A program made the position numbers and the translations under genes. Below the pieces are notes generated by a model, which did no database searches, was not told the DNA's origin, and was given only the letters and a program-made list of their open reading frames with translations. Shown here one piece after another: positions 5,576 to 39,505 of a stretch of DNA of 64,000 bases. The DNA is from a virus (taxonomy: Duplodnaviria; Heunggongvirae; Uroviricota; Caudoviricetes). Numbering within the stretch: position 1 is the stretch's first letter; every line of letters begins with the position of its first letter. The DNA is taken from IMG/VR virus record IMGVR_UViG_3300028908_000001, positions 1 through 64,000 of that record, one strand, 5' to 3'.

Positions 5576-5590
5576 TATCCTCACCTTTAG

Positions 5591-5619
5591 TAATTATCCC
5601 CGCCCGCGGCGGCTATCAA
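5591..5619 (-). promoter_or_regulatory. sigma70-like promoter, family copy 1 (TTGATA-N17-TAATTA, GGGGATAATTA core)
   Basis: Minus-strand -35 at 5614-5619 and -10 at 5591-5596, about 15 nt upstream of the ATG at 5575. The motif overlaps the stop of the MTase gene. Confidence 0.5.
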
Positions 5620-6503
5620 ACCTCGTCGTTCAATAGCCGCGGCTGTTCGGGCTGCTCTTCTTGCTGCGAACCCTGCTCATGTGCCTTCCGCACTCGTTCG
5701 GCCATAATCTCGAAGTATTTCGATTCCTTCTCAATGTGGATGCCGCGGATACCGCGCAATTCGCAGGCGACAGCCAATGTACCAGAACCAGCAAAGGGAT
5801 CGAGAGCCGTGCCATCTGGCGGACAGATGTAGCGAAGCCACCAGTCGCACAACCTATGAGGTGTTGGAGCTCCGTGGGCCACAGCGCGACCACCCACAGA
5901 CAAGATAATATTGTATGGCGTAACACCCCCGCGTTCGCGGCAAGCCCCGTAAATGGTCTCATGAATTTTTTGATAACCAGAAGGAGAACGTTCATGTCGG
6001 GCAATCAATTTGGCAGCCAAAGTCGCATCCGCCGGTGACCACAACACAGCTTCTTGCTTCCGATAGCAGTTTGATGCCCCAAGCCACACGCAATGCTTGA
6101 CGCTTCCTCGCAATAAGCCAACGTCGCGAGCCGTATGTCTAGTGGGCATAGCATTGTAGTTCCACCAATAAACATCTTGGACAAGATTCCAGTAGCGGGC
6201 CGCCCATAGCACGAACTCCCAAAGCCACAACCGCATCTGGCCCCGATGCTTGAAATTGGGCTGCAGGACAAACACAGCGCTGCCTGTGGGCTTCGTCAAG
6301 CGTTTGACCTCTCGCACCACGTCATGCATTAGTTCGTGCCACTCGTCTTCTTCCCAGTAGCCGTACTCGCGCTTGATGCCCGGATAGGGTGGGTCTGTGA
6401 TAGTGGCATCTATAGATGCCGCGGGCAGCGTCGGCAGTACCTCGCGGCAGTCACCAAGTATAAGCCTCTGTTTGCCGATGGTGAGCTCTTGCATGTCAGT
6501 CAT
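5616..6503 (-). CDS. DNA methyltransferase (beta-class amino-MTase, PF01555-like)
   Basis: ITDPPYPG (motif IV) near the N-terminus and LDPFAGSGTLAVAC (motif I, FxGxG) near the C-terminus. Confidence 0.85.
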   Translation of the reverse strand: MTDMQELTIGKQRLILGDCREVLPTLPAASIDATITDPPYPGIKREYGYWEEDEWHELMHDVVREVKRLTKPTGSAVFVLQPNFKHRGQMRLWLWEFVLWAARYWNLVQDVYWWNYNAMPTRHTARDVGLLRGSVKHCVWLGASNCYRKQEAVLWSPADATLAAKLIARHERSPSGYQKIHETIYGACRERGGVTPYNIILSVGGRAVAHGAPTPHRLCDWWLRYICPPDGTALDPFAGSGTLAVACELRGIRGIHIEKESKYFEIMAERVRKAHEQGSQQEEQPEQPRLLNDEV

Positions 6504-7501: not shown

Positions 7502-8304
7502 AACTCATCACGAATGCCGCACTCGTCTGCAACGCAAAGGACTCCGCTGTTGTCGAAGACAATAGCACGGTGGTTCGGCCGACGGTACACAAGAACAATA
7601 GGCTCATATTGCAAAATCCGAACTATAGGCTGCCCACGTTCACCACGAGGAGGTATCCGCGAAGCGGCAAACAGCCTTTCGCGGCCTTCGTCCGTTTGGA
7701 GGAAGCGCACAATTTGCTCTTCGTCATCGAGTGAAGGGAAGCGCATTGACCGCCACCAACCGAGTCTTACCCGCTGGCCGCCCGGCCAGACTAACGGCGC
7801 GGTCGGTTCCAGTTCGCGTATGGGCAATTCAAGTGTGCGAAGTGCAACATCCAAAATCGGCGGCGGTGCCCATGCGAATGTTTCCGCCAGCGTGTGACCC
7901 CATTCCCTGTAAATCGCCTTTTCCACCAATTTAGGCCAAGCTTGGTCAATCCACCTGCGGATTTCGTACACAAGCCGCACTGTCGGTTCATGCTGCCACC
8001 CAATGCCACTTGAATGACCCCATTCGATATAGTCGCGTTCGGGGAAGTACTCGAACTCGCGGACCCAATTCACGAAATGTAGAGTATCGACAGTGATAGG
8101 CGCGGTATGATGGCTTATACCATCGCCGACATGAACTTCAAGAAAGCCGTTGTGTGCCACCAAATTGCCTGCCAAGTACTGACACATGGCTATTCTCCTC
8201 CTATCAATGTTGGTTGCGCCGCTAGTGTTTGTATGCGTTTCACTGTAGTTTCGACGGTCCGCTCTTGGATGGCACACACCAAGAAGCGGCTTCCTACTCT
8301 TCAT
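7498..8304 (-). CDS. hypothetical protein (start trimmed to an internal Met)
   Basis: The ORF is open to 8424, but the upstream gene ends at 8294, so the internal Met at about 8304 is the more likely start. Confidence 0.45.
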   Translation of the reverse strand: MKSRKPLLGVCHPRADRRNYSETHTNTSGATNIDRRRIAMCQYLAGNLVAHNGFLEVHVGDGISHHTAPITVDTLHFVNWVREFEYFPERDYIEWGHSSGIGWQHEPTVRLVYEIRRWIDQAWPKLVEKAIYREWGHTLAETFAWAPPPILDVALRTLELPIRELEPTAPLVWPGGQRVRLGWWRSMRFPSLDDEEQIVRFLQTDEGRERLFAASRIPPRGERGQPIVRILQYEPIVLVYRRPNHRAIVFDNSGVLCVADECGIRDEL

Positions 8305-9193: not shown

Positions 9194-9210
9194 CTGTATT
9201 CACCCTAGGC

Positions 9211-9239
9211 TAATTATTCCCCATAGCGGCGGCTATCAA
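9211..9239 (-). promoter_or_regulatory. sigma70-like promoter, family copy 2
   Basis: Same TTGATA-N17-TAATTA arrangement with a GGGGAATAATTA core, upstream of the ATG at 9193. Confidence 0.5.
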
Positions 9240-11521
9240 ACGTCTTCCTGCTCAGCCTCAAGCTCTGCTACTATTTCCTCTGCGATACGTGCCGCTTCGT
9301 CGTCCACGAATGCGTCTTCGTTTTCGATAGCCACGCCGACGTGATCTTCAACTAAGTTCTGGTCTGCTTCGCCAATGTTGAAACGCACTTCGCCGGCCTC
9401 TTGGTCCTCGGCGTCCTGCCGTCGCTTGGCACCAAACACAGCTTGCAGACGTGCCGCGAGCGGGGAAATTACTGGCTTGGGTGGAGCCGGGCGGCCTTCA
9501 ATAGCTTGCTCCATCTGCTCAAGCCACTCGCGGCTATCCTCTCGTGCCCTGCGGGCTATCTCATCAAACAAGTCCTTCGGCATGACATCACCACTCCTCT
9601 CCGCGCGGCTTTCAGGCCGCGCCAGCATCCGTGCCTTGGCCCCACGCTCCGCCTCCTCCCGCTCGACGCGCTTCCAATACTCCGCATTTTTGCGCCGCTC
9701 GGCACGTTCCTCAGTGCGCTGGCGCACCTCTTCCAGTTGCTGCAGGTAGCGCTCGTGCTCTGCTGCCGCTTCGCGTATGCCGCGCGGCACGTGGCTCAAT
9801 CCCAGCGATCGCCAGAAAGTAATGTCGTTATATTCATACCGTGAGATGTCACGGCTGACAAGCCAGCGGGTGTACTTTTTCGCTTCGCGGGACGTCCACG
9901 GATGGCGGGGCGAAGGGTCATAGTATGCCGTGTAACCTTCATGGTACAGTTTGTAGCCCTGGTCGAACCAGTCTTCGTTGGGTGACAGCCGCGCGGCTTT
10001 CACCTTTCGCTTGCGAAGCTCGAACAGCCTGCGGGCGCGGTAACACCATCGACAGTCACCACCGAACGCGCGGCAACTGAGCAGCCCCGCGCGGCCATAC
10101 CGTAATGGGCAATGTAGCGGAATATAACCGACCTTGCCATGCACCAACAACGAAGCAAACGGACAAGCGTAGTCTTCTTTTGGATGCTCAAGACGCCAGC
10201 GAGCGATGAATGCCGCCGCGGGGCTACTGACGGGGCCACGCTTGAACGTACACGTCACAGAGCGGGGATTACCCTTGACAGCCCCCCAGGGTATTGCTAT
10301 CCATCCCTTCTCGTGGAATAGTTTGCCTATTCCCTTGTCCAACACTTCTCGGTTTTTGTCCTGCCGTTCGGTTGTGTCGGCCGCGTCGCGGGTGATAACA
10401 GACGATGGCCCGTTATCTGCAAGAGAGCGGTGGAAAGTATTTGGTTTTGTTATCTCTCTCTTCCTAGAGAGAGATATAACAGGGAGCTGTGGGATAGCAG
10501 GAAGCTTTGGGGCAGGATAGCCGCACGAAAAAAATGGATGATGATGCCATTCGGCGTGGCCGGTTGCTTGGTCACAGAAGTACCGCCGCACCTCGGGGTC
10601 TTCGGCTATGCGCCGCAGGATGTGCCGTATGGCGTCCAGTTGTCGGGCGTTTACGGTGATGGCCGCGCTGCCAGCAAAGCCGAGGGCACGTGGATGGAGG
10701 TTGTAGACACTACTTGCGGGGTATTTGGCCGCGGGCGGATACTTCTTTCTACGCTTCATGGGGACACCGTAGGCTATTTTGGCTGTCTTTACGTGGTGGT
10801 TGGCCTTGTCGCGTGCTTTGGCTGCCGCGCGGCGGTTGCCGTCTTTGTATGCCCGCCGCATTTCGGAACGGTAATTGTTCGCCGCGCGGAACTGCTCGAT
10901 GACGAAGGCTTCCACTTCGACGGGGAAGTCATGTATCTTCTTGAGGTGCCGCTCGAACCAGCGCAGGTCGTATGCCTTGGGCTTCAGCGCGGGCTTATAG
11001 TAGTACCTGAGTTGCCCCGACGATGGACTGCGGTGCTGTTCCCTCCTCACGTGGCCTTTGTCTGATAGTTTCTTCAATGTCTGCGCGGCGTGTGTGTAGC
11101 TGATCTTGAGTGCCGCGCTGACGCCGTAGGCGGTGAGGCCCCAGGAGTTTGGGTGTAGCTGGTGATGTTTCTTGACGACGTAGTAGGCCGCCGCTTCGTA
11201 GTGGGAGAGCGTGTCGGGATGCTTTCTGGGCGGCTTGCGGCGGCTAACATTCCACTCGGGGTCTACAGGATCGCCGAGGGGATAGTCGTAGGTAACATCG
11301 CCGACGGCGACGTATCGATGCTTGGACGCGCGGCTATGGGGAATAACGGGGCCTTTGTCTTTGATTAGCCCGCGCTTGATGAGTCGTTGGATAGTATGCT
11401 TGACCCTATCGCGGCTTACACCAAGATAACGCCCCATTTCCACCGAGGACAGTGGCTCCGGGGCGTATATCCTGAGGAGTTGATGTACTTGTGCTTCAAG
11501 TTCGGTTAGATGTTCAGCCAT
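9236..11521 (-). CDS. large HTH-containing protein, putative replication initiator or organiser
   Basis: 761 aa with an N-terminal winged-helix-like segment (MGRYLGVSRDRVKHTIQRLIKRGLI) and a Cys cluster (CRAFGGDCRWC). It lies next to the helicase and carries an internal palindrome plus an AT-rich patch (see findings). Function not established. Confidence 0.6.
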   Translation of the reverse strand: MAEHLTELEAQVHQLLRIYAPEPLSSVEMGRYLGVSRDRVKHTIQRLIKRGLIKDKGPVIPHSRASKHRYVAVGDVTYDYPLGDPVDPEWNVSRRKPPRKHPDTLSHYEAAAYYVVKKHHQLHPNSWGLTAYGVSAALKISYTHAAQTLKKLSDKGHVRREQHRSPSSGQLRYYYKPALKPKAYDLRWFERHLKKIHDFPVEVEAFVIEQFRAANNYRSEMRRAYKDGNRRAAAKARDKANHHVKTAKIAYGVPMKRRKKYPPAAKYPASSVYNLHPRALGFAGSAAITVNARQLDAIRHILRRIAEDPEVRRYFCDQATGHAEWHHHPFFSCGYPAPKLPAIPQLPVISLSRKREITKPNTFHRSLADNGPSSVITRDAADTTERQDKNREVLDKGIGKLFHEKGWIAIPWGAVKGNPRSVTCTFKRGPVSSPAAAFIARWRLEHPKEDYACPFASLLVHGKVGYIPLHCPLRYGRAGLLSCRAFGGDCRWCYRARRLFELRKRKVKAARLSPNEDWFDQGYKLYHEGYTAYYDPSPRHPWTSREAKKYTRWLVSRDISRYEYNDITFWRSLGLSHVPRGIREAAAEHERYLQQLEEVRQRTEERAERRKNAEYWKRVEREEAERGAKARMLARPESRAERSGDVMPKDLFDEIARRAREDSREWLEQMEQAIEGRPAPPKPVISPLAARLQAVFGAKRRQDAEDQEAGEVRFNIGEADQNLVEDHVGVAIENEDAFVDDEAARIAEEIVAELEAEQEDV
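10450..10477. other. perfect 11-bp-arm inverted repeat (ttatctctctc-ttccta-gagagagataa) inside the 761-aa gene, next to an A-rich patch
   Basis: Read directly; candidate origin or binding site within the rep-like gene. Confidence 0.5.
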
Positions 11522-15684: not shown

Positions 15685-16638
15685 TCAGCCAACGATAGCG
15701 ACAGGAATGTGCTTGGCTGGGTTGTTCTCTGCCGCATTGACGTAGTGTGCATAAATTTGGGTGGTCCTCGGATTACGGTGTCCAAGTTCCTCTTGGACGG
15801 CCCGCTCTTCGGCACCGTGCTTTAGCGCCAGAGTTGCGGCGGTATGTCGCAGGTCGTGGGGCCGGTGCTCATGCAAACCGGCGGCGTCCAAGTACTGCCG
15901 TATGACCCAGTTCAACCCGCGGCTGGTCAAGCCCTTGTACGCACCGTGGCCGCGGTCACGGATAAACATTGGGTCCGTGGGCTGGGGCTTACCGACTTCG
16001 GCTTCGCGGCGGGCAAGCCACTCCATCAATGCCAATTCCGTATCCTCCCGGAGAAACACAATGCGTTCCTGGCCCTTGCCCCTCGCGATCACATAGGGGG
16101 CTTCCGTGGGCCAATAATCTCTGACCTGCATATTTATCACTTCTATCTGTCGCAGGCCATGAATTGCCAGCAAGCCAAGAATGGCGCGGTCACGCCATGC
16201 CCACAGGTTGTCACCCTTCACGGCGGCAAATAGTCGCTGCAGTTCTTCTTCGGTGAGTGCCCGCGCGGGTGCGAGATAGCTTTGCTTGGAGAACGGTACC
16301 TTTACTGTGCGGGCAGGATTGTGCGCTACCAAGCCGTCGGCCATTAGCTGGCTATAGAAGATTTTTAGCACCGTAATCCGGTGATGGGCCGTCGTGGGCA
16401 ACAACCCTTCCTCGGCCAGCATGTGGTCGCGCCAGTCGATGACATCATCAACCGTGGCGGTCAAGGGGTTGATCCCGTTCTCGTTGCACCAATTCAACCA
16501 CTTGTTGACGACGGCCCAGTACGTCCTGATGGTATTGGCCGCCGTAAAGCCGCGGCGGCGCATATAGCTCCAGAAGGCTTCGCGCAGGTCACGATACGGT
16601 TCCATCATCGCTACGGGCATGATAGCCATGCTAATCAC
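15685..16638 (-). CDS. int: tyrosine integrase/recombinase (phage integrase family)
   Basis: C-terminal catalytic signature HDLRHTAATL...GHRNPRTTQIYAHY (R-H-R-Y with the Tyr nucleophile) and an N-terminal SAM-like core-binding domain. Confidence 0.9.
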   Translation of the reverse strand: MISMAIMPVAMMEPYRDLREAFWSYMRRRGFTAANTIRTYWAVVNKWLNWCNENGINPLTATVDDVIDWRDHMLAEEGLLPTTAHHRITVLKIFYSQLMADGLVAHNPARTVKVPFSKQSYLAPARALTEEELQRLFAAVKGDNLWAWRDRAILGLLAIHGLRQIEVINMQVRDYWPTEAPYVIARGKGQERIVFLREDTELALMEWLARREAEVGKPQPTDPMFIRDRGHGAYKGLTSRGLNWVIRQYLDAAGLHEHRPHDLRHTAATLALKHGAEERAVQEELGHRNPRTTQIYAHYVNAAENNPAKHIPVAIVG

Positions 16639-18283: not shown

Positions 18284-18688
18284 TCACCTCCGAGCCGCAA
18301 TAGCGGCGGCTATTCTCATGCCGACAAGCCAAGCGAGGACCAACAGGCGCTGGTGTGCCTCATAGCGCGCGGCTATCACCCGCACTTGTTCAATCATTAA
18401 CGGATCATCCAAAGGCTTGCCGCCCGCGTCAATCCGGCGCTTCCAGCGCCTTAGATGGTGGGCCGCCTGCCATGCGGTCATCGCGTCGAAGCGCGACAAC
18501 CCGAAGCGCTCGTGGGCTTCATTCGCCCAAGCCTCGTAAGACTTCTTGGCGTCGGCCGCAAGGCTCGCGGCAGTCAATATCTCTTGCCCGCGGGCTGACA
18601 GCCAAGCATCAATCCTGCGAAGTTCGCTCCCTGTCGGCGGCTTGTAGGGCCTCACCATCATCCCCTCCTCCCAAAGCGCGGCAAGCAA
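18284..18688 (-). CDS. hypothetical protein
   Basis: 134-aa ORF. Confidence 0.5.
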   Translation of the reverse strand: MLAALWEEGMMVRPYKPPTGSELRRIDAWLSARGQEILTAASLAADAKKSYEAWANEAHERFGLSRFDAMTAWQAAHHLRRWKRRIDAGGKPLDDPLMIEQVRVIAARYEAHQRLLVLAWLVGMRIAAAIAARR

Positions 18689-19309: not shown

Positions 19310-19438
19310 TGCGATTCTTCCTATCGGCCTCGGCGGGCCAGATATTCGTCGGCGATAACGCCGATGATCAATTCCGCGCCGCAGATGAAAGCGTAGACAC
19401 CCGCGGCGGCCAACACGACCTTCATTAGTATCATCACA

Positions 19439-19630
19439 TCACCCCCAGCGGCTTATCCACTCAAGCAGGGCCGCAAACGCGGTCATTATCCCGATGAACG
19501 CCATAACGTCAGACACAGCGATAGCCTCCTCGGTCGGAGTCACTGCCTTCGTGCTATTCTCTCGGCTTGCCGCAGGGCCTGCCCGCTGCCAGCGCAGCGT
19601 TTTGACGTGAAGTCGTTCGGCTGTCCCCAA
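19439..19630 (-). CDS. small hydrophobic protein (doubtful)
   Basis: 63-aa ORF with a hydrophobic C-terminus (MAFIGIMTAFAALLEW). Confidence 0.25.
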   Translation of the reverse strand: MGTAERLHVKTLRWQRAGPAASRENSTKAVTPTEEAIAVSDVMAFIGIMTAFAALLEWISRWG

Positions 19631-19717
19631 ACAACTACGTAACCTTGGGGCTGCCGGTGTATCGACACAACGGGATACACCGGTTCGCCCAGACTGACCA
19701 CGTTACCGCGTTGCAAG

Positions 19718-19771
19718 GCCCGCCGTCGGCAGCGGCGTGGCGGGCGACCGGCCCACGCGGGCCGGTTTCGC
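19718..19771. repeat. structured intergenic repeat, family A copy 1
   Basis: About 52 bp, near-identical to 21318-21370; contains the hairpin ccggccc-acgc-gggccgg followed by tttcgc. Confidence 0.8.
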
Positions 19772-19803
19772 ACGTTATTCGTTGTTCATAGCATGACCTT
19801 TTG

Positions 19804-20550
19804 CTACCGAGGCTTAGGCCAATCCGACCGCCATAGCTGGCGGTCATCCTCCTTTGATGGGATGACCGTTACAGCGATGAGAAACATCCCGTCGCCCGTG
19901 ACGGCCACCCCCCAGAAGGGGGCTTGGCCCCGGTACCGGCTGATGGCAGCTCGCAGGCCGCGCCGCGAGCTGCCAGAGACATCTATGTGGCGGTTCCGTA
20001 GTCGCCACGCTCTTAATGGCAACTCAGCTAGGTGCTCCGGCAATACTACATCCGCTAGGAAATTCATCCTCCCGAGTGGTGTATGGGCATTGCTGCGAAA
20101 CTCGTGCCAAATTGGTTCCGCTAACACAGCGGCAGCAGTTAGTATGGGCGTCTGCCGCCAGTCGGCAGGATACGCGTCCCGCCAACGTGGCTCGAACCCG
20201 GATGGTTGTGGCGGATAGTTGCTGGCATAGAACAGCCCGCTCTCTGGCTCCCGCTGGATGGCGAGGAGCCTATCCGCGACTGCCGCTGCGAGTGTGGGAT
20301 GATCTACTAACAGCGGGCCGACTACGTCCCAAATCTCGAACAGCTCCAGGGCACGATTATAATCCCATGCCCATCCGTGCTCTGCCTTATGCAAGCCCAG
20401 AAACTCCCGGAGTCGGTCTGGGAGCTGCTTGAGGTCTGCCCCACAGTCGGGGCAGAGTCCTCGCTTGATTAGCTCCCATGCCTCATCCTGTTCGTACCCG
20501 CCGCGGCGTATTTCGCCGCAGCAGGGGAATGCAGCTAGTCGTGTCGCCAT
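19804..20550 (-). CDS. hypothetical protein
   Basis: Start moved to the internal ATG at 20550 (MATRLAAFPCCGEI), directly downstream of structured repeat B. The ORF-track extension to 20685 would read through the repeat. Confidence 0.5.
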   Translation of the reverse strand: MATRLAAFPCCGEIRRGGYEQDEAWELIKRGLCPDCGADLKQLPDRLREFLGLHKAEHGWAWDYNRALELFEIWDVVGPLLVDHPTLAAAVADRLLAIQREPESGLFYASNYPPQPSGFEPRWRDAYPADWRQTPILTAAAVLAEPIWHEFRSNAHTPLGRMNFLADVVLPEHLAELPLRAWRLRNRHIDVSGSSRRGLRAAISRYRGQAPFWGVAVTGDGMFLIAVTVIPSKEDDRQLWRSDWPKPR

Positions 20551-20559
20551 CTCAATCTT

Positions 20560-20612
20560 GGCCCCCCGCTCTTTCGAGCGCCGCCCGCTACTGGGGCCTG
20601 CGGGCGGTAGAA
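20560..20612 (-). repeat. structured leader repeat, family B copy 1
   Basis: Two hairpins, ccgcccgc-N11-gcgggcgg and cgctc-GAAA-gagcg (as RNA on the minus strand), immediately 5' of the ATG at 20550. Confidence 0.75.
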
Positions 20613-20721
20613 TTGGCACCGCCATTCTGATTATGCTTGTGCCACTGCTGCGTGTTTCCCGACGCGACTGTCGTCGGGGTGCCATGAGTTCTTCGGTGCT
20701 GTGTTCTCGATCTTCATGATC

Positions 20722-21219
20722 CTAGCCCCTTATTTCGGCCATGATGTCTTCAACCGTCTCCTCTAGCACTTTACGTATCCATCCTGTCCAATCATAAGAC
20801 CCGCACTGGTAGATCTTCAAGCGCCGCTTTTCAGTTAGGCTGCGGCCGCGCAGTTTTCCATCTACCTCCCAAAGGACGATATACTCGACGTCGCTACCGG
20901 ACAGCGTTGCTGGTTGCACTTGCGTACCAATCGTGGGGGCATCCTGTATGATTCTGCCATTTGTGATGCGACGCAGCCGCAGCCGCCATACATCGTCGTT
21001 TTCCACCACCCAGGCGAGTGATATGCCGCTCCAGTCCTTGTCGAACCACCCCCTCACGGTCTTGGTGTAGGTAGGCACGGTGTCCAGCAGCTCATCTGTG
21101 ACGTGGCCGAATATCACCTCGTCTTGTGCCACGGGACACAGCCCCACGCCGAGCCGGTCAATCCACGGATACTGCCTTCGCAGAAGCGCCAAACGTGCTG
21201 CTGTAATGATCATTCTCAT
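20722..21219 (-). CDS. hypothetical protein
   Basis: 165-aa ORF; its ATG is preceded by an AAGGGG SD and repeat B copy 2. Confidence 0.55.
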   Translation of the reverse strand: MRMIITAARLALLRRQYPWIDRLGVGLCPVAQDEVIFGHVTDELLDTVPTYTKTVRGWFDKDWSGISLAWVVENDDVWRLRLRRITNGRIIQDAPTIGTQVQPATLSGSDVEYIVLWEVDGKLRGRSLTEKRRLKIYQCGSYDWTGWIRKVLEETVEDIMAEIRG

Positions 21220-21222
21220 CCT

Positions 21223-21277
21223 GGCCCCTTCGCTCTTTCGAGCGCCGCCCGCTTCAGGGGCCTGCGGGCGGTTGGAT
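21223..21277 (-). repeat. structured leader repeat, family B copy 2
   Basis: Same two hairpins immediately 5' of the ATG at 21219. Confidence 0.75.
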
Positions 21278-21317
21278 TACCCGGCAACTGCCGGAGCCGC
21301 TGCCTTCGCTCGTCAGG

Positions 21318-21370
21318 TCCGCCGTCGGCAGCGGCGTGGCGGGCGACCGGCCCACGCGGGCCGGTTTCGC
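21318..21370. repeat. structured intergenic repeat, family A copy 2
   Basis: Identical core gccgtcggcagcggcgtggcgggcgaccggcccacgcgggccggtttcgc. Confidence 0.8.
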
Positions 21371-21383
21371 GCGTCAATCCCGC

Positions 21384-21935
21384 TCAGCTTTCAGCCTCCG
21401 CGGAGAAAAGCCCGAGCCACACACGCTCCCTCACGCGAATCTCATGCGGCTCTAGCTCGAAGACAGTGTACCAAGACGCGCGACATCGCTGTATCAGGAT
21501 GTATTCTGGTCTAACGCCAGCGGCACGCAGCCGCCGGAGAAAGTCGCCTATGTCTTCGCCCCACCAGCGCCAGTTATCAAGGACAGCTTCGTGGCCCCAT
21601 AGTCGGTGGCGGTCAACGATTTCGCCACCAGCTACTGCGTATACGTACAGGTGGCCGAAGCCACCCCTGTGAATCCCTTGGGCACTGAACCACGAACACG
21701 CGCCGCACTGGACATGGCGGATTTTCTGGATGTCGGCCTCTGCCCCCCTGTAAAAGAAAATCTGCCTGTTGATCTCCTCTGGTAAATCCTCTGGTGGCTC
21801 CCGCCGTTCGTGGAACGGCGGGAGGAATTTCTCCAAGAACGGGAAGGAACTGATTATTCTCCTGCGGTCTTTCTCCCCCAATTCACTAAATGGGAAGGCT
21901 TCCTCGAATGTTGGGAACTCTTCCTCGAATGTCAT
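21384..21935 (-). CDS. hypothetical protein
   Basis: Start at MTFEEEF, preceded by an AGGAGGG SD. Confidence 0.5.
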   Translation of the reverse strand: MTFEEEFPTFEEAFPFSELGEKDRRRIISSFPFLEKFLPPFHERREPPEDLPEEINRQIFFYRGAEADIQKIRHVQCGACSWFSAQGIHRGGFGHLYVYAVAGGEIVDRHRLWGHEAVLDNWRWWGEDIGDFLRRLRAAGVRPEYILIQRCRASWYTVFELEPHEIRVRERVWLGLFSAEAES

Positions 21936-22174
21936 GCTGATCCCTCCTATCTGTGTGGTCAGCGTCATTATACCCACCCCACCACCGCGATAAACCTCCC
22001 GCCGGAGATTTTTCTCCGACTACCTCAATGCCAGCGCCAGCAGCCAAACGCCAGCGCCAGCAAACGCCAAGGACCCCGCCCACCAGTACAAGCGGGCGAA
22101 GCCCCGGCGTTCTGCCCCCAGCCGCCAGCATATCGCGGCGGCGAACGGCGCGACTATCAATCCTGGGAGTGCGT

Positions 22175-22429: not shown

Positions 22430-22523
22430 CGTCATCACCTCCGTTTTTCTTGCACCGCTATCGCGGCGGCGGGAACCTACCCCACAGACAGGCTCCCGCC
22501 GCCCCAATAGGGGCGGTCAACGG

Positions 22524-22935: not shown

Positions 22936-23100
22936 TGAGTACCCCTCCTATTTTGTATTGTGCCTAACGGCGCGGCGGGAACCCGTTCGCGATTGAGCGA
23001 GTTCCCGCCGGGCCATTAGGCCCGGCCTGCGGCGACTAAATCCGCGCTGCGACCTCCCGCGCGAGCGCCATTAGCGCCCGCTCGGCGGCGCGGCGGCTAT

Positions 23101-23461: not shown

Positions 23462-23997
23462 CCACGTCCACCACATTGCCCCCAGCGGCGCGTATGCGAT
23501 ATCCGCTGCCCATACAGGCGATATACGCGCGCGTGCCGCCGATAGATACCTCCACTCCTCCCGTCCGTCGCAAACAATCCTCCATTGCCGTTCACCTCCG
23601 TAGTCTATTCTACCACATTTATCGGCACCGAGCAATGCCGAGATAATTCCTGCGCTACCTAATTATCGCCCCGCGCGGCTACCGTTTACATTTATTTACA
23701 TCCTCCACTGACCATTATCCTACTATCCTCTATAGTATCGCGCCATTCTGCCCAATTCCCCCGCCGCGGCTGTTGCCCAAACCGTATCCTAATCGTGCCT
23801 AATCTGTGTCCACTATAATCCCCCAATCGCACCATATCACCCCCAACCCCTAACTCGCACCCTAACCCCAACTCATGCCCCACAGCGCGTTACGCGCCGC
23901 CCTAGCGCCAGCAACGACCATTCTCCCAGTAGCCTCTCCCTATGTGCTTCCTAATACCACCACCGCCAGCGACACAACGCTATTCGCCCCAGTAGCA

Positions 23998-30004: not shown

Positions 30005-30431
30005 AACTCAGCAGCTTTTGCGTGATTTGCTGCTCAAATATGGCTATGATGACCGCGCGGCGGCCTCCTTGGCGGTGCATTTGGCGGAGCTCCGCAGGTT
30101 ATGTGGCCATTATGTGCGTGTTCTGGAAAAGGGCGAGGCCATCGACGACCTAGTGAAGCAAGAGAAAATAAAGAGTTTGTCGCAGGTTATTGCGTATCAT
30201 GCTAGCCGCGCGGCTGTTATCTTTGATGAAGGCGTCGAGTACGTGGATAAGAGCGAACGGCCCGCGGGTGAAATGGCTGTAGTTGCCGACGAGGCCGATA
30301 CCAATTTGGAACGTGTGCTCAATGCTTTGCGACAAGAAGCAATCCGCCGTGGCATTCTACCGGAGGATGTTGAAGAGGCTGTCGAGGAAGCTAGGGGAGA
30401 GACATACGATGAGCAATATGGACAGCAATAA
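29985..30431 (+). CDS. hypothetical protein
   Basis: 148-aa ORF. Confidence 0.55.
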   Translation: MKRSMLETQQLLRDLLLKYGYDDRAAASLAVHLAELRRLCGHYVRVLEKGEAIDDLVKQEKIKSLSQVIAYHASRAAVIFDEGVEYVDKSERPAGEMAVVADEADTNLERVLNALRQEAIRRGILPEDVEEAVEEARGETYDEQYGQQ

Positions 30432-30837
30432 TGGCGATATGGGGCAATACGGCAGGGATTGGATATTGGACGAGTCGGGGCGGTCAGTGGCTCCCGAAAG
30501 AGCCGAACAGCAAGAACTTAGCCAAAGCGCTTTGTTGCGGGCCATCATCGAAGCAACGGAAGCGGGTAGGTTGGAATGGTACTACGCGCCGGGATGTACT
30601 GGCGCAGCAGACTTGGGGCCATGGCACTTTGTCATGCGTGAAAACGACGAGGGGCTTCCATACTTGGAGGCTTGGGCGGTTGCAGGTACAGCACAGGGTA
30701 TAAGTTGGGCGTGGTACTTTCATCTGGACGAATTGTTTGAGCTGGAGAGGTTGGTGAAAGCCGCCGTTGCGCGGGACAAGGAAAAGCAGCGGCGGGCTTA
30801 CGATGACTTGATGAGCCGCTTGAAGGGCGGTGCATAG
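30409..30837 (+). CDS. hypothetical protein
   Basis: Start at MSNMDS after the upstream stop. Confidence 0.5.
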   Translation: MSNMDSNNGDMGQYGRDWILDESGRSVAPERAEQQELSQSALLRAIIEATEAGRLEWYYAPGCTGAADLGPWHFVMRENDEGLPYLEAWAVAGTAQGISWAWYFHLDELFELERLVKAAVARDKEKQRRAYDDLMSRLKGGA

Positions 30838-30839
30838 CA

Positions 30840-31454
30840 ATGGCCGATGGACCTAGGGTTGTGCGGCTAAAGTTTGCGCCGGAGTTTGAAGCTGACCTGC
30901 GGGCGGGCATGAAGCGTACAACGTTGCGGCTGAATATGGTGCCCGTTGTGCAAGTGGGCGACGAATTGGTGGCAATCAATGCCGAGACGGGTGACGAGAT
31001 AATTCGCGGGCAAGTAGTTGAGGTCTGGTCGGGGCCGCTGATGATGTTGCCCATCAAATGGTATCAAGCTGAAGGAGTCGATAGTTACTTGGAGCTAAAG
31101 CGCTTGCTCGCTAGGTTCTACGACACTGTTCGGGATGACCGTCTCGTCGTGGCTATCGAGTGGAGCTTTGTTCAATGGCGAGATGACTGCGGGACAGTGA
31201 TGGTGCGGGGCGTCGGTCATTTGAGACAACTGCTGCAGGACATGCTGGATGAGGACTCGGCTACCGTAACTGGCCCAAGCGGTTCTTATCGCGTGCGCTG
31301 CCGCGAGATGTGGGAGGACGGCCCCGACTGGGAAGTGTGGCGCGTCGTGAACGGAGAATTGGTGGTGCATGTGGGGTCGTTTTCAGACGCTCTGGACGGC
31401 GCGTGGGCGCTTTGGCGGCGAGCGTGCTTGGGCTACGAGGAGGCGGCCGACTAA
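30840..31454 (+). CDS. hypothetical protein
   Basis: 204-aa ORF. Confidence 0.6.
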   Translation: MADGPRVVRLKFAPEFEADLRAGMKRTTLRLNMVPVVQVGDELVAINAETGDEIIRGQVVEVWSGPLMMLPIKWYQAEGVDSYLELKRLLARFYDTVRDDRLVVAIEWSFVQWRDDCGTVMVRGVGHLRQLLQDMLDEDSATVTGPSGSYRVRCREMWEDGPDWEVWRVVNGELVVHVGSFSDALDGAWALWRRACLGYEEAAD

Positions 31455-31837
31455 TGCGGGCAACAATAGACCAGAGCTTCGACGAAGAGCTGTACACCCG
31501 CGAACGCCAGCGATGGCACAATTGGTTTGTGCACCAGTATGGCAGTTCCTATGACAGGAACGACATGATAGCGCTTGTCTTCGTGACGTATATGCAAGAG
31601 CGCTACGGGCCATCTTGCCGGGATAGGGAGACGGGCAAGATTATGGATTGGGGCCAGGCCCTCGCGCGGGAATGTTATGGTGTGAATTGGAATGACGTGA
31701 TGCCCGATAGTGCACCGTCTGAGGACGATGCGCAACGGGCCGAGGCATGGATGCGGGGTAATTGGCCTGATTGGGTTGACGTTGAGTTTTTGGCCCGCCA
31801 AGCAATGCGTGCCGAGGAGGCCGTCAGCGATGAGTGA
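31454..31837 (+). CDS. hypothetical protein
   Basis: ATGcgggca at 31454 overlaps the upstream stop. Confidence 0.55.
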   Translation: MRATIDQSFDEELYTRERQRWHNWFVHQYGSSYDRNDMIALVFVTYMQERYGPSCRDRETGKIMDWGQALARECYGVNWNDVMPDSAPSEDDAQRAEAWMRGNWPDWVDVEFLARQAMRAEEAVSDE

Positions 31838-32081
31838 TTGGTTTCCTTGGGTTTGGTTCATGTTGGGTTACATGTCGGGTTTTTACGACGGCGCGGCCAC
31901 GGGGCATGAATTGGACGCCGAAGTGCTTGGACATCGGGCTGAGATTGCGTATCGGAAGATGGTCGCGGCGTTCGCGGAGTTGGGCGACTATAGCAAGTTT
32001 GTGTCGGTTTTGCTGGCCCGCGCGGCGCACAAGGTCTTGAGCGACGAGGAGGCGGCTGACCAATGCGAGAACAATCTATGA
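31830..32081 (+). CDS. hypothetical small protein (MSDWFPWVWFMLG)
   Basis: GAGGAGG SD; hydrophobic N-terminus. Confidence 0.5.
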   Translation: MSDWFPWVWFMLGYMSGFYDGAATGHELDAEVLGHRAEIAYRKMVAAFAELGDYSKFVSVLLARAAHKVLSDEEAADQCENNL

Positions 32082-32208
32082 AACGGAGTGATAACAGGCG
32101 AGTACCGACCGAGCGCAAGCGCCCAAGGACCGCGAAGCATCGCCATGGAAGCTCGGGAGGTGGCGTGTATCCTGCACCGCGCCCCTGTCGAATCATTGAG
32201 AATGGGGA

Positions 32209-32629
32209 GTGTTAGTAATGGGAAAGGTGCCTCCGAAGTTTATGGTTGCCGCGATATTGCGGGCTGCTGAGCGACAACATACGAACCTACTGCCTTCTGA
32301 CGCGGGCGCATTGGCGTATCTGGTGGCATTGCGCCACGGGGTCACCAACCTGACGTTTCGTTCCCCCCGACGGTGTGTGGTCGGGGGACATCAGTGCGGC
32401 CATTGCGGCCTTGCAAGGCTGGGGTGCGATAGACAGGAACTTGTGCATCACAGAACGCGAGCGCGAGGAATACAACCGCCTGCCCGATGATGTGCGGCGG
32501 CTGATAGACAAACTTTCTTCAACTGCTGCGTCCATCCTCTCTGAGGTCGAAGATCCACGGCTATTGGGTTGTATCTGCCGTGTCGTCCGCGAGGTCTGTG
32601 TCCGGCCTGATGTTGCGGGGGTGTGCTGA
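32209..32629 (+). CDS. hypothetical protein, apparently frameshifted at a C6 tract (about 32346-32351)
   Basis: ORF 32209..32490 and ORF 32375..32629 join into one plausible protein if one C is removed or added at ttcccccc. Confidence 0.4.
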
Positions 32630-32634
32630 TGTGC

Positions 32635-32661
32635 GAGTAATCTACCAGCCGCGAGGCAAAG
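32635..32661 (+). repeat. 27-nt direct repeat, copy 1 (duplicated 5' end of the radical SAM gene)
   Basis: gagtaatctaccagccgcgaggcaaag versus gagtaatctacgagccgcgaggcaaag at 33062-33088 (26/27 identical). Confidence 0.85.
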
Positions 32662-32677
32662 GGAGAGGGGGAGTCGT

Positions 32678-33061
32678 ATGCCGACAGCGAGAATAGATGT
32701 GAGTTCGGCCATACAACTAGCTGATATTGCTGCATGTGCTGAATTGACCGCAACCCACTTGCGTGAATTGTCTAGCGGTTCTGCTGCTGTGCCAGCAAAA
32801 CAGGGGCTTGTACTGCGCATGATTGAGATACTGCAAAGACTAAAAGCAAGCGCTTCCCCAGAGTGCCTGATCTACGGCAGATATGAGTATCGCTCGCCAG
32901 TAGCTGAAATCGCAACCAGTGCTTTGCCTTGTGATTTGGATGTGCTGATGCATAGTTTGCAGTCCATTGTGCGAAGCCAGCGGGCAGCCGCTTCCTTTGC
33001 CGCTCAAATGTTGGAACACTTATCTGACAACATCGTAACGGCCTTAGGAGGTGTGATATGA
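32678..33061 (+). CDS. hypothetical protein (moron flanked by 27-nt direct repeats)
   Basis: 127-aa ORF with a GGGGGAG SD; bounded by repeats at 32635-32661 and 33062-33088. Confidence 0.55.
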   Translation: MPTARIDVSSAIQLADIAACAELTATHLRELSSGSAAVPAKQGLVLRMIEILQRLKASASPECLIYGRYEYRSPVAEIATSALPCDLDVLMHSLQSIVRSQRAAASFAAQMLEHLSDNIVTALGGVI

Positions 33062-34011
33062 GAGTAATCTACGAGCCGCGAGGCAAAGCACGGGAATATG
33101 CGCCGTTGGCCGTCAACTTGTACACCGGCGGTTGGAACGGCGGCGGTTGCAACAACGGGTGCAAGTACTGTTATGTTCAGTGGATGCCCGGCTTCCGCGA
33201 TAGGCGCGGGCAGCCGCTTTGCCTGAGGGATGGCGTGCTTGAGCAGCTTGAGAAGGATGTGGAGGAACTGGCCGCGCGGGGCTGTCAAGACGAGATACTG
33301 CTGAGTTTTACGCATGATCCCTTCCTTCCCAGTGACACATCAATACAGACGGAGCAAGGTTTCGTGCCTATGCCTCCTATCATGCTTCACCCTGTTCAGC
33401 GCGCGCTGGACATCTTAGTTGAGACCGGCCTGAAGTGGACCACTCTGACCAAGAACCCATACATAGCCCTTACAGCCGGCGAGGATTTTTATCGCAAGGC
33501 GGGTGCGCGATGCCGCTTTGGTGTTTCGTTGTCTTGGGTGGCAGAAGCCACCGAGGAAGCCCGATGGTGGGAGCCAAATGCTGACATTCCGGCGCTACGT
33601 ATAAACTGCTTGGGCCAAGCCAAGGACTATTTGGGCCTTCGCACTTGGGTTTCATTGGAGCCTGTTCTTGACCCCGTGCAGGCCATCGAACTCATCTGCA
33701 GCTACAGCGACATCGTGGACGAGTGGCGGATCGGGTTGGCTAATTACGTGGAGAAGTGGCCCGCCGAAGCGCAAGAACAATACTGGGGATATTGGCGGGG
33801 TTTCTGGTTGCGGGTGCGGCAGCCGTGGCATGGCTTCGATTGGGCCGTCGCCGCTAAGGAGTTTGGCGAATGGCTCGCCAACACGCTGCAGAAGCACGCG
33901 CGGGCTTGGTATGTCAAGCACAGCTTGAGGCCCTATATGCCGAAGGGGTTTCCATACGAAATGGGGGATGTTTCCCATGCCAGCAAGAGTAACGTTTCGC
34001 GCGGCAACTGA
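33058..34011 (+). CDS. radical SAM protein, SplB/DNA-photolyase-like family (COG1533-type)
   Basis: N-terminal NLYTGGWNGGGCNNGCKYCY (CxxxCxYC). Confidence 0.75.
   Translation: MRVIYEPRGKAREYAPLAVNLYTGGWNGGGCNNGCKYCYVQWMPGFRDRRGQPLCLRDGVLEQLEKDVEELAARGCQDEILLSFTHDPFLPSDTSIQTEQGFVPMPPIMLHPVQRALDILVETGLKWTTLTKNPYIALTAGEDFYRKAGARCRFGVSLSWVAEATEEARWWEPNADIPALRINCLGQAKDYLGLRTWVSLEPVLDPVQAIELICSYSDIVDEWRIGLANYVEKWPAEAQEQYWGYWRGFWLRVRQPWHGFDWAVAAKEFGEWLANTLQKHARAWYVKHSLRPYMPKGFPYEMGDVSHASKSNVSRGN
33062..33088 (+). repeat. 27-nt direct repeat, copy 2 (codons 2-10 of the radical SAM gene)
   Basis: See copy 1. Confidence 0.85.
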
Positions 34012-34639
34012 AGCCGAATTGATAGGTGCGCTTCTAAAGGACGCACAGTATTGGCCCGCCGAAGTGCTTCTGAAGATATGGAAGACACCTGCGCAATTGG
34101 TGGCCACGGTCGAGTGTGGCTCTGTGCCAGATGGTTCGATAATCGAAGAATACATCGATGATGCGGCCCGCGACCGTGCTTGGGGCTTCGACGAAAGCGA
34201 ACTTGAAGAACTGGGGAATGCGGATGCTGCGGATTGTTTTGATGAAGACGAGTTGCGCGAGATGTATGAGGAAAGCACAAGCAGCTTGTTGGGGGCACTG
34301 AATGAAGGACTTCATATTGGCCACGACTTGGCAGAACTGCTGCGGCAGTGGCTCGCCAGCTTTGCTCGGGGTGTGCGCACGGTATGGATAGCCCGCCGCG
34401 CGGGCTACTATCAGCTCGGCGGCCTCCCCGACAACTTCTCCGATGACAAGGCATTTGAGTTGTGGCGTGAAGCGTTCATCGATGAACTCAACCGAAGGCT
34501 GGATGAGTATTGGGACTTGTCGGCTTATGACGATGCGGATGTGCTTCTGGATGAAGTCTACGAGCTTCGTGCGGAGAACGCGCGGTTGAAGCGCGAGGTT
34601 AAAGAATTGAAACAGCGCGAGAACGATGGCTCACAATAG
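33977..34639 (+). CDS. hypothetical acidic protein
   Basis: 220-aa ORF. Confidence 0.55.
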   Translation: MPARVTFRAATEAELIGALLKDAQYWPAEVLLKIWKTPAQLVATVECGSVPDGSIIEEYIDDAARDRAWGFDESELEELGNADAADCFDEDELREMYEESTSSLLGALNEGLHIGHDLAELLRQWLASFARGVRTVWIARRAGYYQLGGLPDNFSDDKAFELWREAFIDELNRRLDEYWDLSAYDDADVLLDEVYELRAENARLKREVKELKQRENDGSQ

Positions 34640-34656
34640 TTTGCCGCCGGTGGCAA

Positions 34657-34686
34657 TTGACACCACGTTCAGCAATACAATATAAT
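34657..34686 (+). promoter_or_regulatory. near-consensus sigma70 promoter TTGACA-N18-TATAAT
   Basis: Read directly: ttgacaccacgttcagcaatacaatataat, then a GGAGG SD and the ATG at 34713. Confidence 0.7.
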
Positions 34687-34712
34687 ACGAAAAACATCCT
34701 CGGAGGCACGCT

Positions 34713-36092
34713 ATGGAGTTACCACCTGATAAGGTTGAGTTGTTGCGGCGGCTTCTCCCGTATCGTGGAGCCACACTCCGAATAGCAGAAACACATCCTG
34801 AAGTGCTAACTGCGCTCTACGAACTTTTCGATGGTGTAGTTACCCGCGCGGCCCGTTTCTTGGGTTGTTGCAAAAAGCGCCTGCGGCGCGCTTGGCAGAC
34901 TGCGGGGCTAGAACCCAACAAGAACTACAATGTCAACCGCATTCCCGACCCCAATGATTATGTGGATGACATAGCCTATGCCAATGCTTATGATCGTGCG
35001 CAGCTAGCGGCGCAAATGGCCCCGCCCCAAGCGCTGGAAGAACTCGACCGTTTCATGCGGGAAAGTTCCGAGGTCAGCGATGGCGACGTGGCGGCCATCC
35101 TCGATCAGCTTGGCATCAGCATAGACGATGACTTCGACAGCATTTGGCGTGCTGTCACTGAGCTGCAGGATGCCCTGAAGCCCCTAAAGATTGAGCGCCG
35201 CACTACTACTTGGCACATCCCCGAGAATAAGCCCATCGGCATCGCGGCCCTCTCCGATATGCACATCGGTGCTGATGGTACCGATTATCGTGTCCTCGGG
35301 GCCGTTTTGAAACTCATCTACGATACCGATGGTATGTATATGGTCTGCCACGGCGACATCATCAACAACTATATCAGCCGCAGCCCCGACACCGAGAGGC
35401 ACAGCCAGGTGCTTTCACCTGCTGTTCAGAAAGAACTCGCCAAGCGCATCATGGAGCATTTCGGCATTAAGAAGAAGGTCATTGCTATCACGCGCGGCCA
35501 ACACGAAGCGTGGAGCATTCGCCAGGACGATTTCGACCCGGCGGCGTATTTCGCCAAACATGCAGACGCGGCCTATCTTGGCCCCGGCGGTGTTGTCCAT
35601 GCGGAATTCCCCGATGGTACTAAATACGTCTTTGGCATCTGGCACAAGTATCGGGGTTCTTCTATCTATGACGAGACGGCCCGCGCGAAACGTGCTTATA
35701 GAGAACACGGCGCGGGCCAATGGGATGTCACAATAGTCGGCGATAAGCACACTCCTGCGGTCAGCTACGAGATAGCCGTAGGCAAACTGTGTGCATTTGT
35801 CTGCTCGGGGGCCGCCAAGCTGGGCGACATGTATGCCGACGATTTGGGCTATATTGACCAGCGGCGCTTCATGGTTCCCGTTGTTATAATATGGCCCGAG
35901 AAGCGCAAGATGTGGCTGACTCTGGACTTCGTAGAAGGCGTACAATATCTAGAGTATGTGCGGCGGGCTTGGGATGAGCGCGCCAAAGAACAGATAAAAC
36001 AGGAAATTCACCAGGGGGCTACCAAAGACGGAAGGGCTACCGCTGGACGAAAGAGCCGAAAGAGCACCCGACGTCGAAAAGATAGTAAGTGA
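34713..36092 (+). CDS. calcineurin-like metallophosphoesterase
   Basis: SDMHIGADG (DxH), CHGDIIN (GD), TRGQHEAW (GNHE-like); a near-consensus promoter and GGAGG SD lie upstream. Confidence 0.75.
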   Translation: MELPPDKVELLRRLLPYRGATLRIAETHPEVLTALYELFDGVVTRAARFLGCCKKRLRRAWQTAGLEPNKNYNVNRIPDPNDYVDDIAYANAYDRAQLAAQMAPPQALEELDRFMRESSEVSDGDVAAILDQLGISIDDDFDSIWRAVTELQDALKPLKIERRTTTWHIPENKPIGIAALSDMHIGADGTDYRVLGAVLKLIYDTDGMYMVCHGDIINNYISRSPDTERHSQVLSPAVQKELAKRIMEHFGIKKKVIAITRGQHEAWSIRQDDFDPAAYFAKHADAAYLGPGGVVHAEFPDGTKYVFGIWHKYRGSSIYDETARAKRAYREHGAGQWDVTIVGDKHTPAVSYEIAVGKLCAFVCSGAAKLGDMYADDLGYIDQRRFMVPVVIIWPEKRKMWLTLDFVEGVQYLEYVRRAWDERAKEQIKQEIHQGATKDGRATAGRKSRKSTRRRKDSK

Positions 36093-36096
36093 TTTT

Positions 36097-37427: not shown

Positions 37428-37429
37428 CG

Positions 37430-39354: not shown

Positions 39355-39505
39355 GCTGCGCGAGAAGGTAGCTCATGAAGTTTTGGAACGCGAAGGACCC
39401 AAGGTGGCTGCGCGTTTACAGCGTGAGCGCGGGCCACTTTCTGATAAGGAGTTGGAACTAATCTGGGCATGCATGGAATACTATACGGAGGAATTGTTGC
39501 GGTGA
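39299..39505 (+). CDS. hypothetical small protein (doubtful)
   Basis: 68-aa ORF overlapping the previous gene by 56 nt. Confidence 0.3.
   Translation: MMGLFGSLRKKLERKLLSKLREKVAHEVLEREGPKVAARLQRERGPLSDKELELIWACMEYYTEELLR

Follow-up and report, generated by a model that had tools for sequence, protein, structure and literature searches.

Hammerhead ribozymes that flank phage genes have been known since 2011. Prophages can contain multiple hammerheads on either side of one gene or of a short block of genes whose identity varies, in many cases close to an integrase, and part of these ribozymes may be non-functional (PMC3088659). In A. tumefaciens, a triple hammerhead arrangement surrounds ardA (PMC3088659, Fig. 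3). Here we describe a related locus in a 64-kb stretch of DNA (the window; positions 1 to 64,000 of IMG/VR virus record IMGVR_UViG_3300028908_000001) that comes from a novel tailed phage. Two families of structured intergenic repeats, A and B, are observed around two orphan genes on the minus strand, which is the mRNA strand for everything described below unless another strand is named. The order is geneX (21977..21384), A2, 36 nucleotides (nt), B2, gene1 (21219..20722), 108 nt, B1, gene2 (20550..19804), 24 nt and A1. On balance we favour the view that this is a ribozyme-delimited two-gene orphan cassette with B pseudoknot leaders, located in the early arm of the phage.

Judged by its sequence, A2 is a type II hammerhead self-cleaving ribozyme and a somewhat atypical member of that family. 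It occupies 21296..21372, as defined by alignment to Rfam family RF02276, by a descriptor of our own, by a pseudoknot duplex and by phage homologues. Reading 5' to 3', the motif opens with the stem II 3' strand (CGC, 21371-21369) and G12A13A14 (21368-21366), followed by stem III (ACCGGCCC-GCGU-GGGCCGGU, 21365-21346; 8 bp including A15.1-U16.1) and C17 (21345), which makes GUC the NUH triplet. Stem I (GCCCGCC, 21344-21338, with GGCGGAC, 21323-21317; 7 bp including one C.A mismatch) encloses a loop at 21337-21324 and leads to the core box CUGACGA (21316-21310) and the stem II 5' strand (GCG, 21309-21307) of a 3-bp stem that includes G10.1-C11.1. The catalytic core, C3-U4-G5-A6-N7-G8-A9 with G12-A13-A14, is complete, and the core-adjacent pairs A15.1-U16.1, G10.1-C11.1 and G1.1-C2.1 agree with published rules (PMC3088659). 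Hairpin loops close off stems I and III, and stem II is open, as expected of type II topology. From the Rfam alignment and the descriptor, self-cleavage is predicted at GUC/G (21344..21345), between C21345 (H17) and G21344 (1.1). A tertiary pseudoknot of at least 4 bp between loop I and the sequence 3' of stem II occurs in most type II hammerheads (PMC3088659). In A2, a tail that starts two nt past stem II (GGCAGCGGC, 21304-21296) can pair with loop I (GCCGCUGCC, 21335-21327) over 9 bp, at -19.3 kcal/mol.

In a permissive scan of the mRNA strand, RF02276 (Hammerhead_II) gave 25.7 bits for A2 and 16.8 bits for A1, and was the best Rfam match of any family in the whole window; pseudoknots receive no score in the covariance model. 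Our descriptor encodes the acceptance criteria of Perreault et al. 2011 (PMC3088659). Applied strictly to both strands of the window it matched A2 only, and 3,697 dinucleotide-preserving shuffled windows yielded nine matches, or 0.0024 per window. Searching IMG/VR with a pattern made up only of GCGAAAC, the outer part of stem III and GUC located seven phage loci (L017-L023), and every one of them is a complete type II hammerhead with CUGAYGAG at the correct distance. All seven sit 1-6 nt past a stop codon, and in six an ATG that opens an open reading frame (ORF) follows 17-19 nt after the ribozyme. When A2 and these homologues were aligned jointly, four of five stem I pairs changed on both sides and 97.6% of cells paired; in the pair counts, A1 was the sole row that breaks stem II. 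Core and stems, descriptor, pseudoknot and homologues together make a convincing sequence case for family A as a hammerhead. From translations read by eye, the gene upstream of the homologous ribozyme looks HU/IHF-like at five of the seven loci, and at one locus the downstream gene looks GemA/Mu gp16-like.

A2 thus resembles other RF02276 hammerheads in its full core, type II topology, GUC cleavage triplet, short stem II and loop I/tail pseudoknot, and also in its intergenic place in a phage, on the sense strand and straight after a stop codon. It differs in having a loop I of 14 nt rather than about 8, and a pseudoknot of 9 bp rather than about 4-6. Its start codon is about 90 nt downstream with B in between, rather than about 17-19 nt away. 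Since the homologues have their start codon directly after the ribozyme, B appears as an insertion into the usual stop-ribozyme-start layout.

The second copy, A1 (19716..19780), is a hammerhead truncated at its 3' end. It matches A2 in sequence up through stem I and retains the stem II 3' strand (UGC), GAAA, stem III and GUC, together with stem I, which is perfectly paired, and the loop of stem I. The repeat stops at C3-U4, and CUUGCAAC then stands where A2 has CUGACGA-GCG-tail. A1 has the GAA of the catalytic core without CUGANGA, and because it lacks G5-A9 of that box, the stem II 5' strand and the pseudoknot tail, a copy of this sequence cannot cleave in cis. Reading of the surrounding sequence revealed no downstream CUGANGA box able to complete it. 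The best reading of A1 is as what is left of a recombination or duplication, one that would still give two stable 3' hairpins after gene2. The A2...A1 bracket resembles the clustered prophage hammerheads (PMC3088659), which also enclose a short accessory-gene block near a recombinase and for which processing of polycistronic mRNA has been proposed. Here, however, one copy is truncated and without cis action, and whereas those clusters contain several hammerheads of types I, II or III, the two A copies share an identical 52-bp core. We regard the bracket as a variant of the known clustered-hammerhead arrangement with one copy dead. Among Logan contigs of SRR8542060, a short-read unitig assembly of this phage, L001 corresponds to window 19742-21348 and L006 begins at 19749, and the breaks fall exactly at the 52-bp A repeat. 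The 1,607-bp contig was considered as a possible circle and rejected: it is a repeat-bounded unitig, with both ends within the A copies, since the 52-bp repeat interrupts the de Bruijn graph. Downstream of A1 lies a hairpin with a 10-bp stem (CCGGUGUAUC...GAUACACCGG, 19659-19690). About 230 nt past A1 are without a convincing gene, followed by a possible small hydrophobic peptide (..MAFIGIMTAFAALLEWISRWG; 19439-19520) with a GAGGAGG Shine-Dalgarno sequence.

The extent of both families was set with a repeat finder. Family A covers 65 nt (19716-19780 and 21315-21379; 94% identity) around an identical run of 52 bp (19720-19771 = 21319-21370), and family B also covers 65 nt (20550-20614 and 21214-21278; 85% identity). 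Searches of the window that allowed three mismatches or fewer located two copies of each family and no more, where shuffles give an expectation of 0.00. The repeat finder and the mismatch searches therefore bear out the first-pass annotation of this DNA, which had proposed two structured intergenic repeat families in the order A..B-gene-B-gene..A. The hairpins it described (ccggccc-acgc-gggccgg in A, and CCGCCCGC-N11-GCGGGCGG and CGCUC-GAAA-GAGCG in B) are all present, and on the mRNA strand a B copy does stand immediately 5' of each of the two start codons. It had placed A correctly just after stop codons, with coordinates that the identical run shows to be off by 1-2 nt at one end; A is, though, not a mere hairpin element but a type II hammerhead, complete in A2 and truncated in A1. 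Thermodynamic folding, which it had suggested as a check, gave z-scores of -0.1 to -2.2 across the elements, not significant on their own. The further B-like copies that it thought worth looking for did not appear: there are only two in the window, and a fuzzy search of the flanking contigs L014 and L016 (about 17 kb) found no more of either family, for a total cover of about 81 of about 94 kb of the phage genome. Exact and gapped DNA patterns of A and B had no match in IMG/VR or in 185,579 reference genomes, and a B 20-mer compared with JGI metagenomes gave seven matches, all of them unrelated terminators or coding sequence.

Each B copy consists of two abutting hairpins and a G-rich tract ahead of a start codon. 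In B2, the gene1 leader (21214..21278), hairpin 1 (21271-21264/21252-21245, loop 21263-21253) is followed by hairpin 2 (CGCUC-GAAA-GAGCG, 21244-21231), a linker AA, GGGGCC (21228-21223), AGG, an ATG at 21219 and a further ATG at 21213. In B1, the gene2 leader (20550..20614), hairpin 1 (20607-20600/20588-20581, loop 20599-20589) is followed by hairpin 2 (20580-20567), a linker G, GGGGCC (20565-20560), AAG, ATT at 20556, GAG and the ATG at 20550. The mRNA reads CCGCCCGC A GGCCCC UGAA GCGGGCGG CGCUC GAAA GAGCG AA GGGGCC AGG AUG AGA AUG for B2 and CCGCCCGC A GGCCCC AGUA GCGGGCGG CGCUC GAAA GAGCG G GGGGCC AAG AUU GAG AUG for B1. The ORFs that run across B1 and B2 are in different reading frames, so family B is to be taken as non-coding on sequence grounds. 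A 293-aa ORF drawn across B1 had already been suspected of being an annotation artefact, and an independent gene call agrees, giving 248 aa from a start at 20550. In the 108-nt spacer between gene1 and B1 there is also an unrelated hairpin, CCCGACG-ACAGUCG-CGUCGGG (20658..20678), that takes, before B1, the place held by A2 before B2.

The differences between the two B copies are not spread evenly. In the 49-nt core, all four fall within the seven unpaired positions and none within the 42 positions of the stems, the GAAA loop and GGCCCC/GGGGCC (hypergeometric P = 1.7e-4), and past GGGGCC five of nine positions differ. Neutral positions are therefore near saturation with the helices intact, which argues that the helices are under selection. 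This observed pattern points to a cis function of B at the RNA level, and B as a translational operator, or other post-transcriptional control shared by the two genes as the first-pass annotation had put forward, is plausible. The loop hexamer GGCCCC (21257..21262 in B2, 20598-20593 in B1) is the exact complement of GGGGCC (21228-21223 and 20565-20560), with a duplex energy of -12.5 kcal/mol and both strands invariant between the copies. GGGGCC, which we take as a G-rich Shine-Dalgarno-like tract, stands 3 nt ahead of ATG 21219 in B2 or the aligned ATT 20556 in B1, and 9 nt ahead of the conserved ATG (21213 and 20550), with the same spacing in both copies. From these features we infer a putative H-type pseudoknot leader that would act on translation. 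Its order 5' to 3' would be the stem 1 5' strand, 1 nt, the 5' strand of the pseudoknot helix, 4 nt, the stem 1 3' strand, the embedded GAAA hairpin and the 3' strand of the pseudoknot helix. Such a topology is sterically ordinary when judged by the usual loop-length rules, and one would look for three inverted repeats that interleave in an RNA pseudoknot more than in a DNA palindrome bound by a protein. A generic descriptor (a hairpin followed directly by a GNRA hairpin) found only B1 and B2 in the window, so B is not a genome-wide leader type. No Rfam family matched B at E<=10 on the mRNA strand, either in a 2.1-kb region or in the whole window. Pistol, HDV-like, twister and preQ1-type assignments were considered and rejected, there being no Rfam match and no conservation of unpaired bases.

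Pseudoknot leaders that sequester the Shine-Dalgarno sequence and contain an embedded hairpin are known, with the preQ1-II-type topology, S15/rpsO and T4 gene 32 as examples. B follows the same plan: after stem 1 comes a loop that would pair with the Shine-Dalgarno region, and the third loop holds a hairpin. The synthetic RiboJ insulator joins a hammerhead, a hairpin and a ribosome-binding site, and A2 with B2 similarly puts a ribozyme and hairpin ahead of a ribosome-binding site. These likenesses concern the working principle and not membership. Two groups of phage repeats are also similar in layout. The PeSL (promoter-stem-loop) cassettes of T4-type phages, in a likeness to this locus, are repeated composite regulatory units that finish with a Shine-Dalgarno sequence and start codon and precede ORFans in plastic regions, where direct repeats can recombine to delete or circularise the genes between them (PMC2839356, PMC4122927). 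PeSL include a sigma-70 promoter and number about 50 per genome, whereas A and B have no recognisable promoter and two copies each. The SAS/ESAS of cluster K mycobacteriophages, like B, are repeats a few fixed nt before the starts of unrelated non-structural genes, overlap the position of the ribosome-binding site and in some cases have upstream inverted repeats (PMC3203893). SAS have a 13-bp consensus, GGGATAGGAGCCC, 3-7 bp before starts in 11-19 copies (PMC3203893), and B has another sequence in two copies. The ESAS inverted repeats lack support for RNA pairing and are proposed DNA-binding sites (PMC3203893), whereas the B helices are perfectly kept. We conclude that B belongs to neither SAS/ESAS nor PeSL.

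The following sequence of events can be proposed. In a polycistronic early transcript, A2 would fold just past the geneX stop codon and self-cleave after C21345, parting the geneX mRNA from that of gene1 and gene2. The geneX mRNA would then end in the 8-bp stem III hairpin with a 2',3'-cyclic phosphate, and the gene1-gene2 mRNA would begin with a 5'-OH followed by the stem I hairpin. B would serve as a portable 5' leader, or translation-initiation cassette, on two unrelated orphan genes; its pseudoknot may occlude or position the ribosome-binding site, and so set or regulate translation of gene1 and gene2, whether by itself or through a protein that binds it. After gene2, A1 would supply two stable 3' hairpins. 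As direct repeats of 52 bp, A1 and A2 could also delete or circularise the 1.6-kb block, in the way that PeSL repeats of T4-type phages do. In a more extreme form, which we think very doubtful, the catalytic half of A2 would serve both GUC sites, and a strand swap would rebuild a hammerhead at A1 to release an exact two-gene RNA of 1,599 nt, a circular phage mRNA. After cleavage at A2, the 5' end of the downstream RNA would keep the 3' strand of stem I, CUGACGA, the strand of stem II and the tail. Since A1 and A2 do not differ in stem I or loop I, and the C to U change in stem II still pairs with G10.3, the swap could rebuild the hammerhead at A1. The RNA ends would be held in a ligation-competent fold by a retrozyme-like or viroid-like route, with the B pseudoknots as internal ribosome landing sites on the circular RNA. 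A milder version would have B as a new class of cis-regulatory pseudoknot RNA.

Several points weigh against the account of a ribozyme-delimited cassette with pseudoknot leaders. The 25.7 bits of A2 are below the Rfam gathering score of 37 bits, and over the whole window and all families the match has E = 0.62, which is not significant taken alone. The descriptor was written once the A2 match was known. In A2, moreover, positions 1.2-2.2 form a C.A mismatch, loop I is longer and the pseudoknot is of unusual length, and its putative cleavage after C21345 is placed by the position of the motif. We consider the low Rfam score to be offset, because the descriptor has a null of 0.0024 per window and the homologues are complete hammerheads in seven of seven cases. 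A1 is not a functional ribozyme, so the A pair is no symmetric ribozyme bracket, and in the homologues the ATG lies within about 20 nt of the ribozyme, which leaves B as an unexplained insertion into that layout. As regards B itself, two copies and the lack of relatives in any search mean that there is no covariation; its fold z-scores are weak (-1.4 to -1.6), the Shine-Dalgarno sequence was assigned by eye, and its conservation fits a protein-binding RNA or DNA site equally well.

The protein-binding alternative takes B as the operator of a trans-acting RNA-binding protein, from phage or host, that co-represses or co-activates gene1 and gene2, the complementarity of loop and Shine-Dalgarno tract being incidental. 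Such an operator would account for the same leader on two unrelated genes, for stems and a GAAA loop strictly kept while the linkers vary, and for the overlap of B with the ribosome-binding region, and there are phage precedents for translational operators, which a review reportedly covers. We hold it to be unlikely, as protein binding alone does not require the 6-7 nt of loop/Shine-Dalgarno complementarity kept in both copies, and no RNA-binding protein was identified, the neighbouring proteins all being orphans in family scans. Another reading, raised by the first-pass annotation, makes B a lambdoid nut site at which an N-like antiterminator would let RNA polymerase pass terminators such as A. 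In lambda and P22, nut sites combine boxA with a boxB of 5-bp stem and GNRA-type loop in the early transcript, and lambda boxB takes a GNRA-like fold. Hairpin 2 of B, with its 5-bp stem and GAAA (GNRA) loop on the mRNA strand of an early operon, is similar. However, the comparison fails over boxA, over where and how often B occurs and, in part, over the size of the loop. No boxA-like CGCUCUU(U)A is present on the mRNA strand within 19600-21500, where a search for CGCUCUUA-like boxA found no GCTCTT, CGCTCTTA or CTCTTTA, and hairpin 1 directly abuts hairpin 2. The loop is a 4-nt GAAA tetraloop and not the lambdoid pentaloop, and the two copies are 664 nt apart in one transcription unit, each at a start codon, instead of forming a single site that follows an early promoter. 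Hairpin 2 accounts for just 14 nt of a conserved core some 49 nt long, A is a ribozyme and not a terminator, with no U-tract on the mRNA strand, and no protein matched an N family, small Arg-rich ORFs being uninformative in a GC-rich region. We give the nut reading next to no credence.

Other explanations place the function of A and B in DNA. Both could be recombination substrates or scars of orphan cassettes without an RNA function of their own, in which case the A2 hammerhead would be inactive or incidental. The A copies form a direct repeat on either side of two orphan genes, with a spacing of 1,599 bp and an identical core of 52 bp, in a loosely packed and atypical region of a phage with a RecA-like protein. 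A1 is truncated exactly within the ribozyme core, and in T4-type phages the PeSL cassettes that precede ORFans undergo recombination and give rise to mini-circles (PMC2839356). Against this, the neutral positions of B are near saturated with all 42 structured positions intact, which indicates purifying selection and not a recent scar, and A2 keeps every catalytic nucleotide and the 9-bp tertiary pseudoknot. Neither A nor B contains a sigma-70-type promoter, and recombination is in any case compatible with RNA functions and does not exclude them. As a full explanation, recombination without RNA function therefore seems improbable to us, to about the same degree as the operator. Highly improbable, in our view, is that A and B are DNA sites of the phage tyrosine recombinase, either att-like or resembling the attC boundaries of integrons. 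An Xer-like tyrosine recombinase gene lies about 3 kb away and hairpin-rich direct repeats do bracket a gene cassette. Yet the recombinase scores 71.9 bits against 265 and 34.5 bits against 435, far under the integron-integrase cut-offs, and A has two separate hairpins and no R''/R' GTTRRRY core, instead of one imperfect palindrome. The absence of A from the 185,579 reference genomes means that no attB was found, which counts against such a site too, and hammerhead homology fully explains A.

The phage genome is about 94 kb (93,880 bp), and its terminase is about 25% identical to known phage terminases. The minus-strand early/replication arm extends from 1 to about 24 kb of the window and is followed by the plus-strand structural arm. 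The gene block at the repeats has spacers of 165-171 nt, whereas genes are tightly packed in the rest of the window. The tyrosine recombinase gene is at 15685-16638, and the RecA-like protein is encoded by the same phage. GeneX (21384..21977) is an orphan ORF of 197 aa with its stop codon 12 nt ahead of the ribozyme GCGAAAC, and gene1 (20722..21219) is an orphan ORF of 165 aa, or 163 aa if ATG 21213 is used. Gene2 (19804..20550), an orphan ORF of 248 aa, has an N-terminal zinc-ribbon-like motif, CCG-x18-CPDC (window 20430-20550). Its only similarity is a marginal one to P0124, a 112-aa protein with PCCG...CPNC, of which about 70 aa align at 41% identity (E about 1e-3). None of the three had a family match in Pfam, PHROGs, NCBIfam or PADLOC. 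Larger searches covered gene1 and gene2: no homologues were found among 5.8 billion proteins, and among 1.84 billion cluster representatives gene2 had two marginal matches, both to the zinc-ribbon region. The predicted gene2 structure was uninformative (pLDDT 40). GeneX, gene1 and gene2 are not paralogues of one another, so the repeats are not leftovers of gene duplication. BLAST of a 6-kb region against phage genomes gave no match, and that of the A2-B2 intergenic region gave noise only. Relatives identified through a neighbouring Mg-chelatase-like gene (L002-L005) are without A or B, and their own repeats are coding fragments. In a distant relative, L005 (chelatase 41% identical), three repeats of about 108 nt (16177-16284, 18494-18601 and 19390-19497) derive from coding sequence for a D12-class methyltransferase, as fragments or paralogues that in some cases fall in gaps of the annotation, and are not structured intergenic elements.

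Other repeats and motifs were noted in this phage. A third intergenic repeat family on the minus strand (5585-5627, 9205-9247 and about 23650-23690) has the form (T)TTGA-TAGCCGCCGC..GGGG-(A/G)ATAAT-TA, with a Shine-Dalgarno sequence and ATG 15-25 nt further on. Its appearance is that of a sigma-70-type promoter (TTGATA / GATAAT) whose two boxes enclose a GC-rich stem-loop, a PeSL-like design that is absent from A and B. Two long imperfect minus-strand hairpins (22455-22513 and 22962-23021) have arms of 24 and 27 nt and a core GGCGGGA(A/G)C...GUUCCCGCC. Both are intergenic, and after each come an A-rich spacer, a Shine-Dalgarno sequence that is strong (AGGAGGGG / GGAGGUGA) and ATG; a partial copy of the hairpin sequence occurs at 7791-7825. 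In the plus-strand arm, direct repeats of 32-35 nt with 88-91% identity occur at gene boundaries (31427-31458/32036-32067 and 32627-32661/33054-33088). One pair holds GAGGAGG...TAATG stop/start overlaps, and the pairs may be paralogous gene ends or boundary cassettes. The palindrome CCGCGG occurs 100 times in the window against 37.6 +/- 6.3 in dinucleotide shuffles, none of 100 shuffles reaching that count, and is absent from 30268-36764 and 36830-42829; several DNA methyltransferases (N6_N4_Mtase, MethyltransfD12) are encoded. On the same phage contig, about 9.6 kb past the right end of the window, a 102-aa gene (L016 19619-19927) has a precomputed Pfam match to Cas_VVA1548 (PF09652) and adjoins a block of glycosyltransferase, methyltransferase and phosphodiesterase genes.

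What hammerheads do for bacteria and phages is not yet settled (PMC6765202), and this locus offers a compact case, with a complete and a truncated hammerhead copy around two orphan genes. The value of B is limited by its two copies in one metagenomic phage with no relatives found, and its generality is uncertain. The 52-bp direct repeat predicts deletion variants with the junction geneX-A-UUGCAAC (geneX...A...CCUUGCAAC) and mini-circle variants with the junction gene2-A-CUGACGAG (gene2...A...CCUGACGAGCG). Repeats that were anonymous hairpins become testable, as a predicted hammerhead that would cut a phage early transcript at a defined base. Together, A2 followed by the conserved structured B leader at the ribosome-binding site may be a natural analogue of engineered ribozyme insulators.

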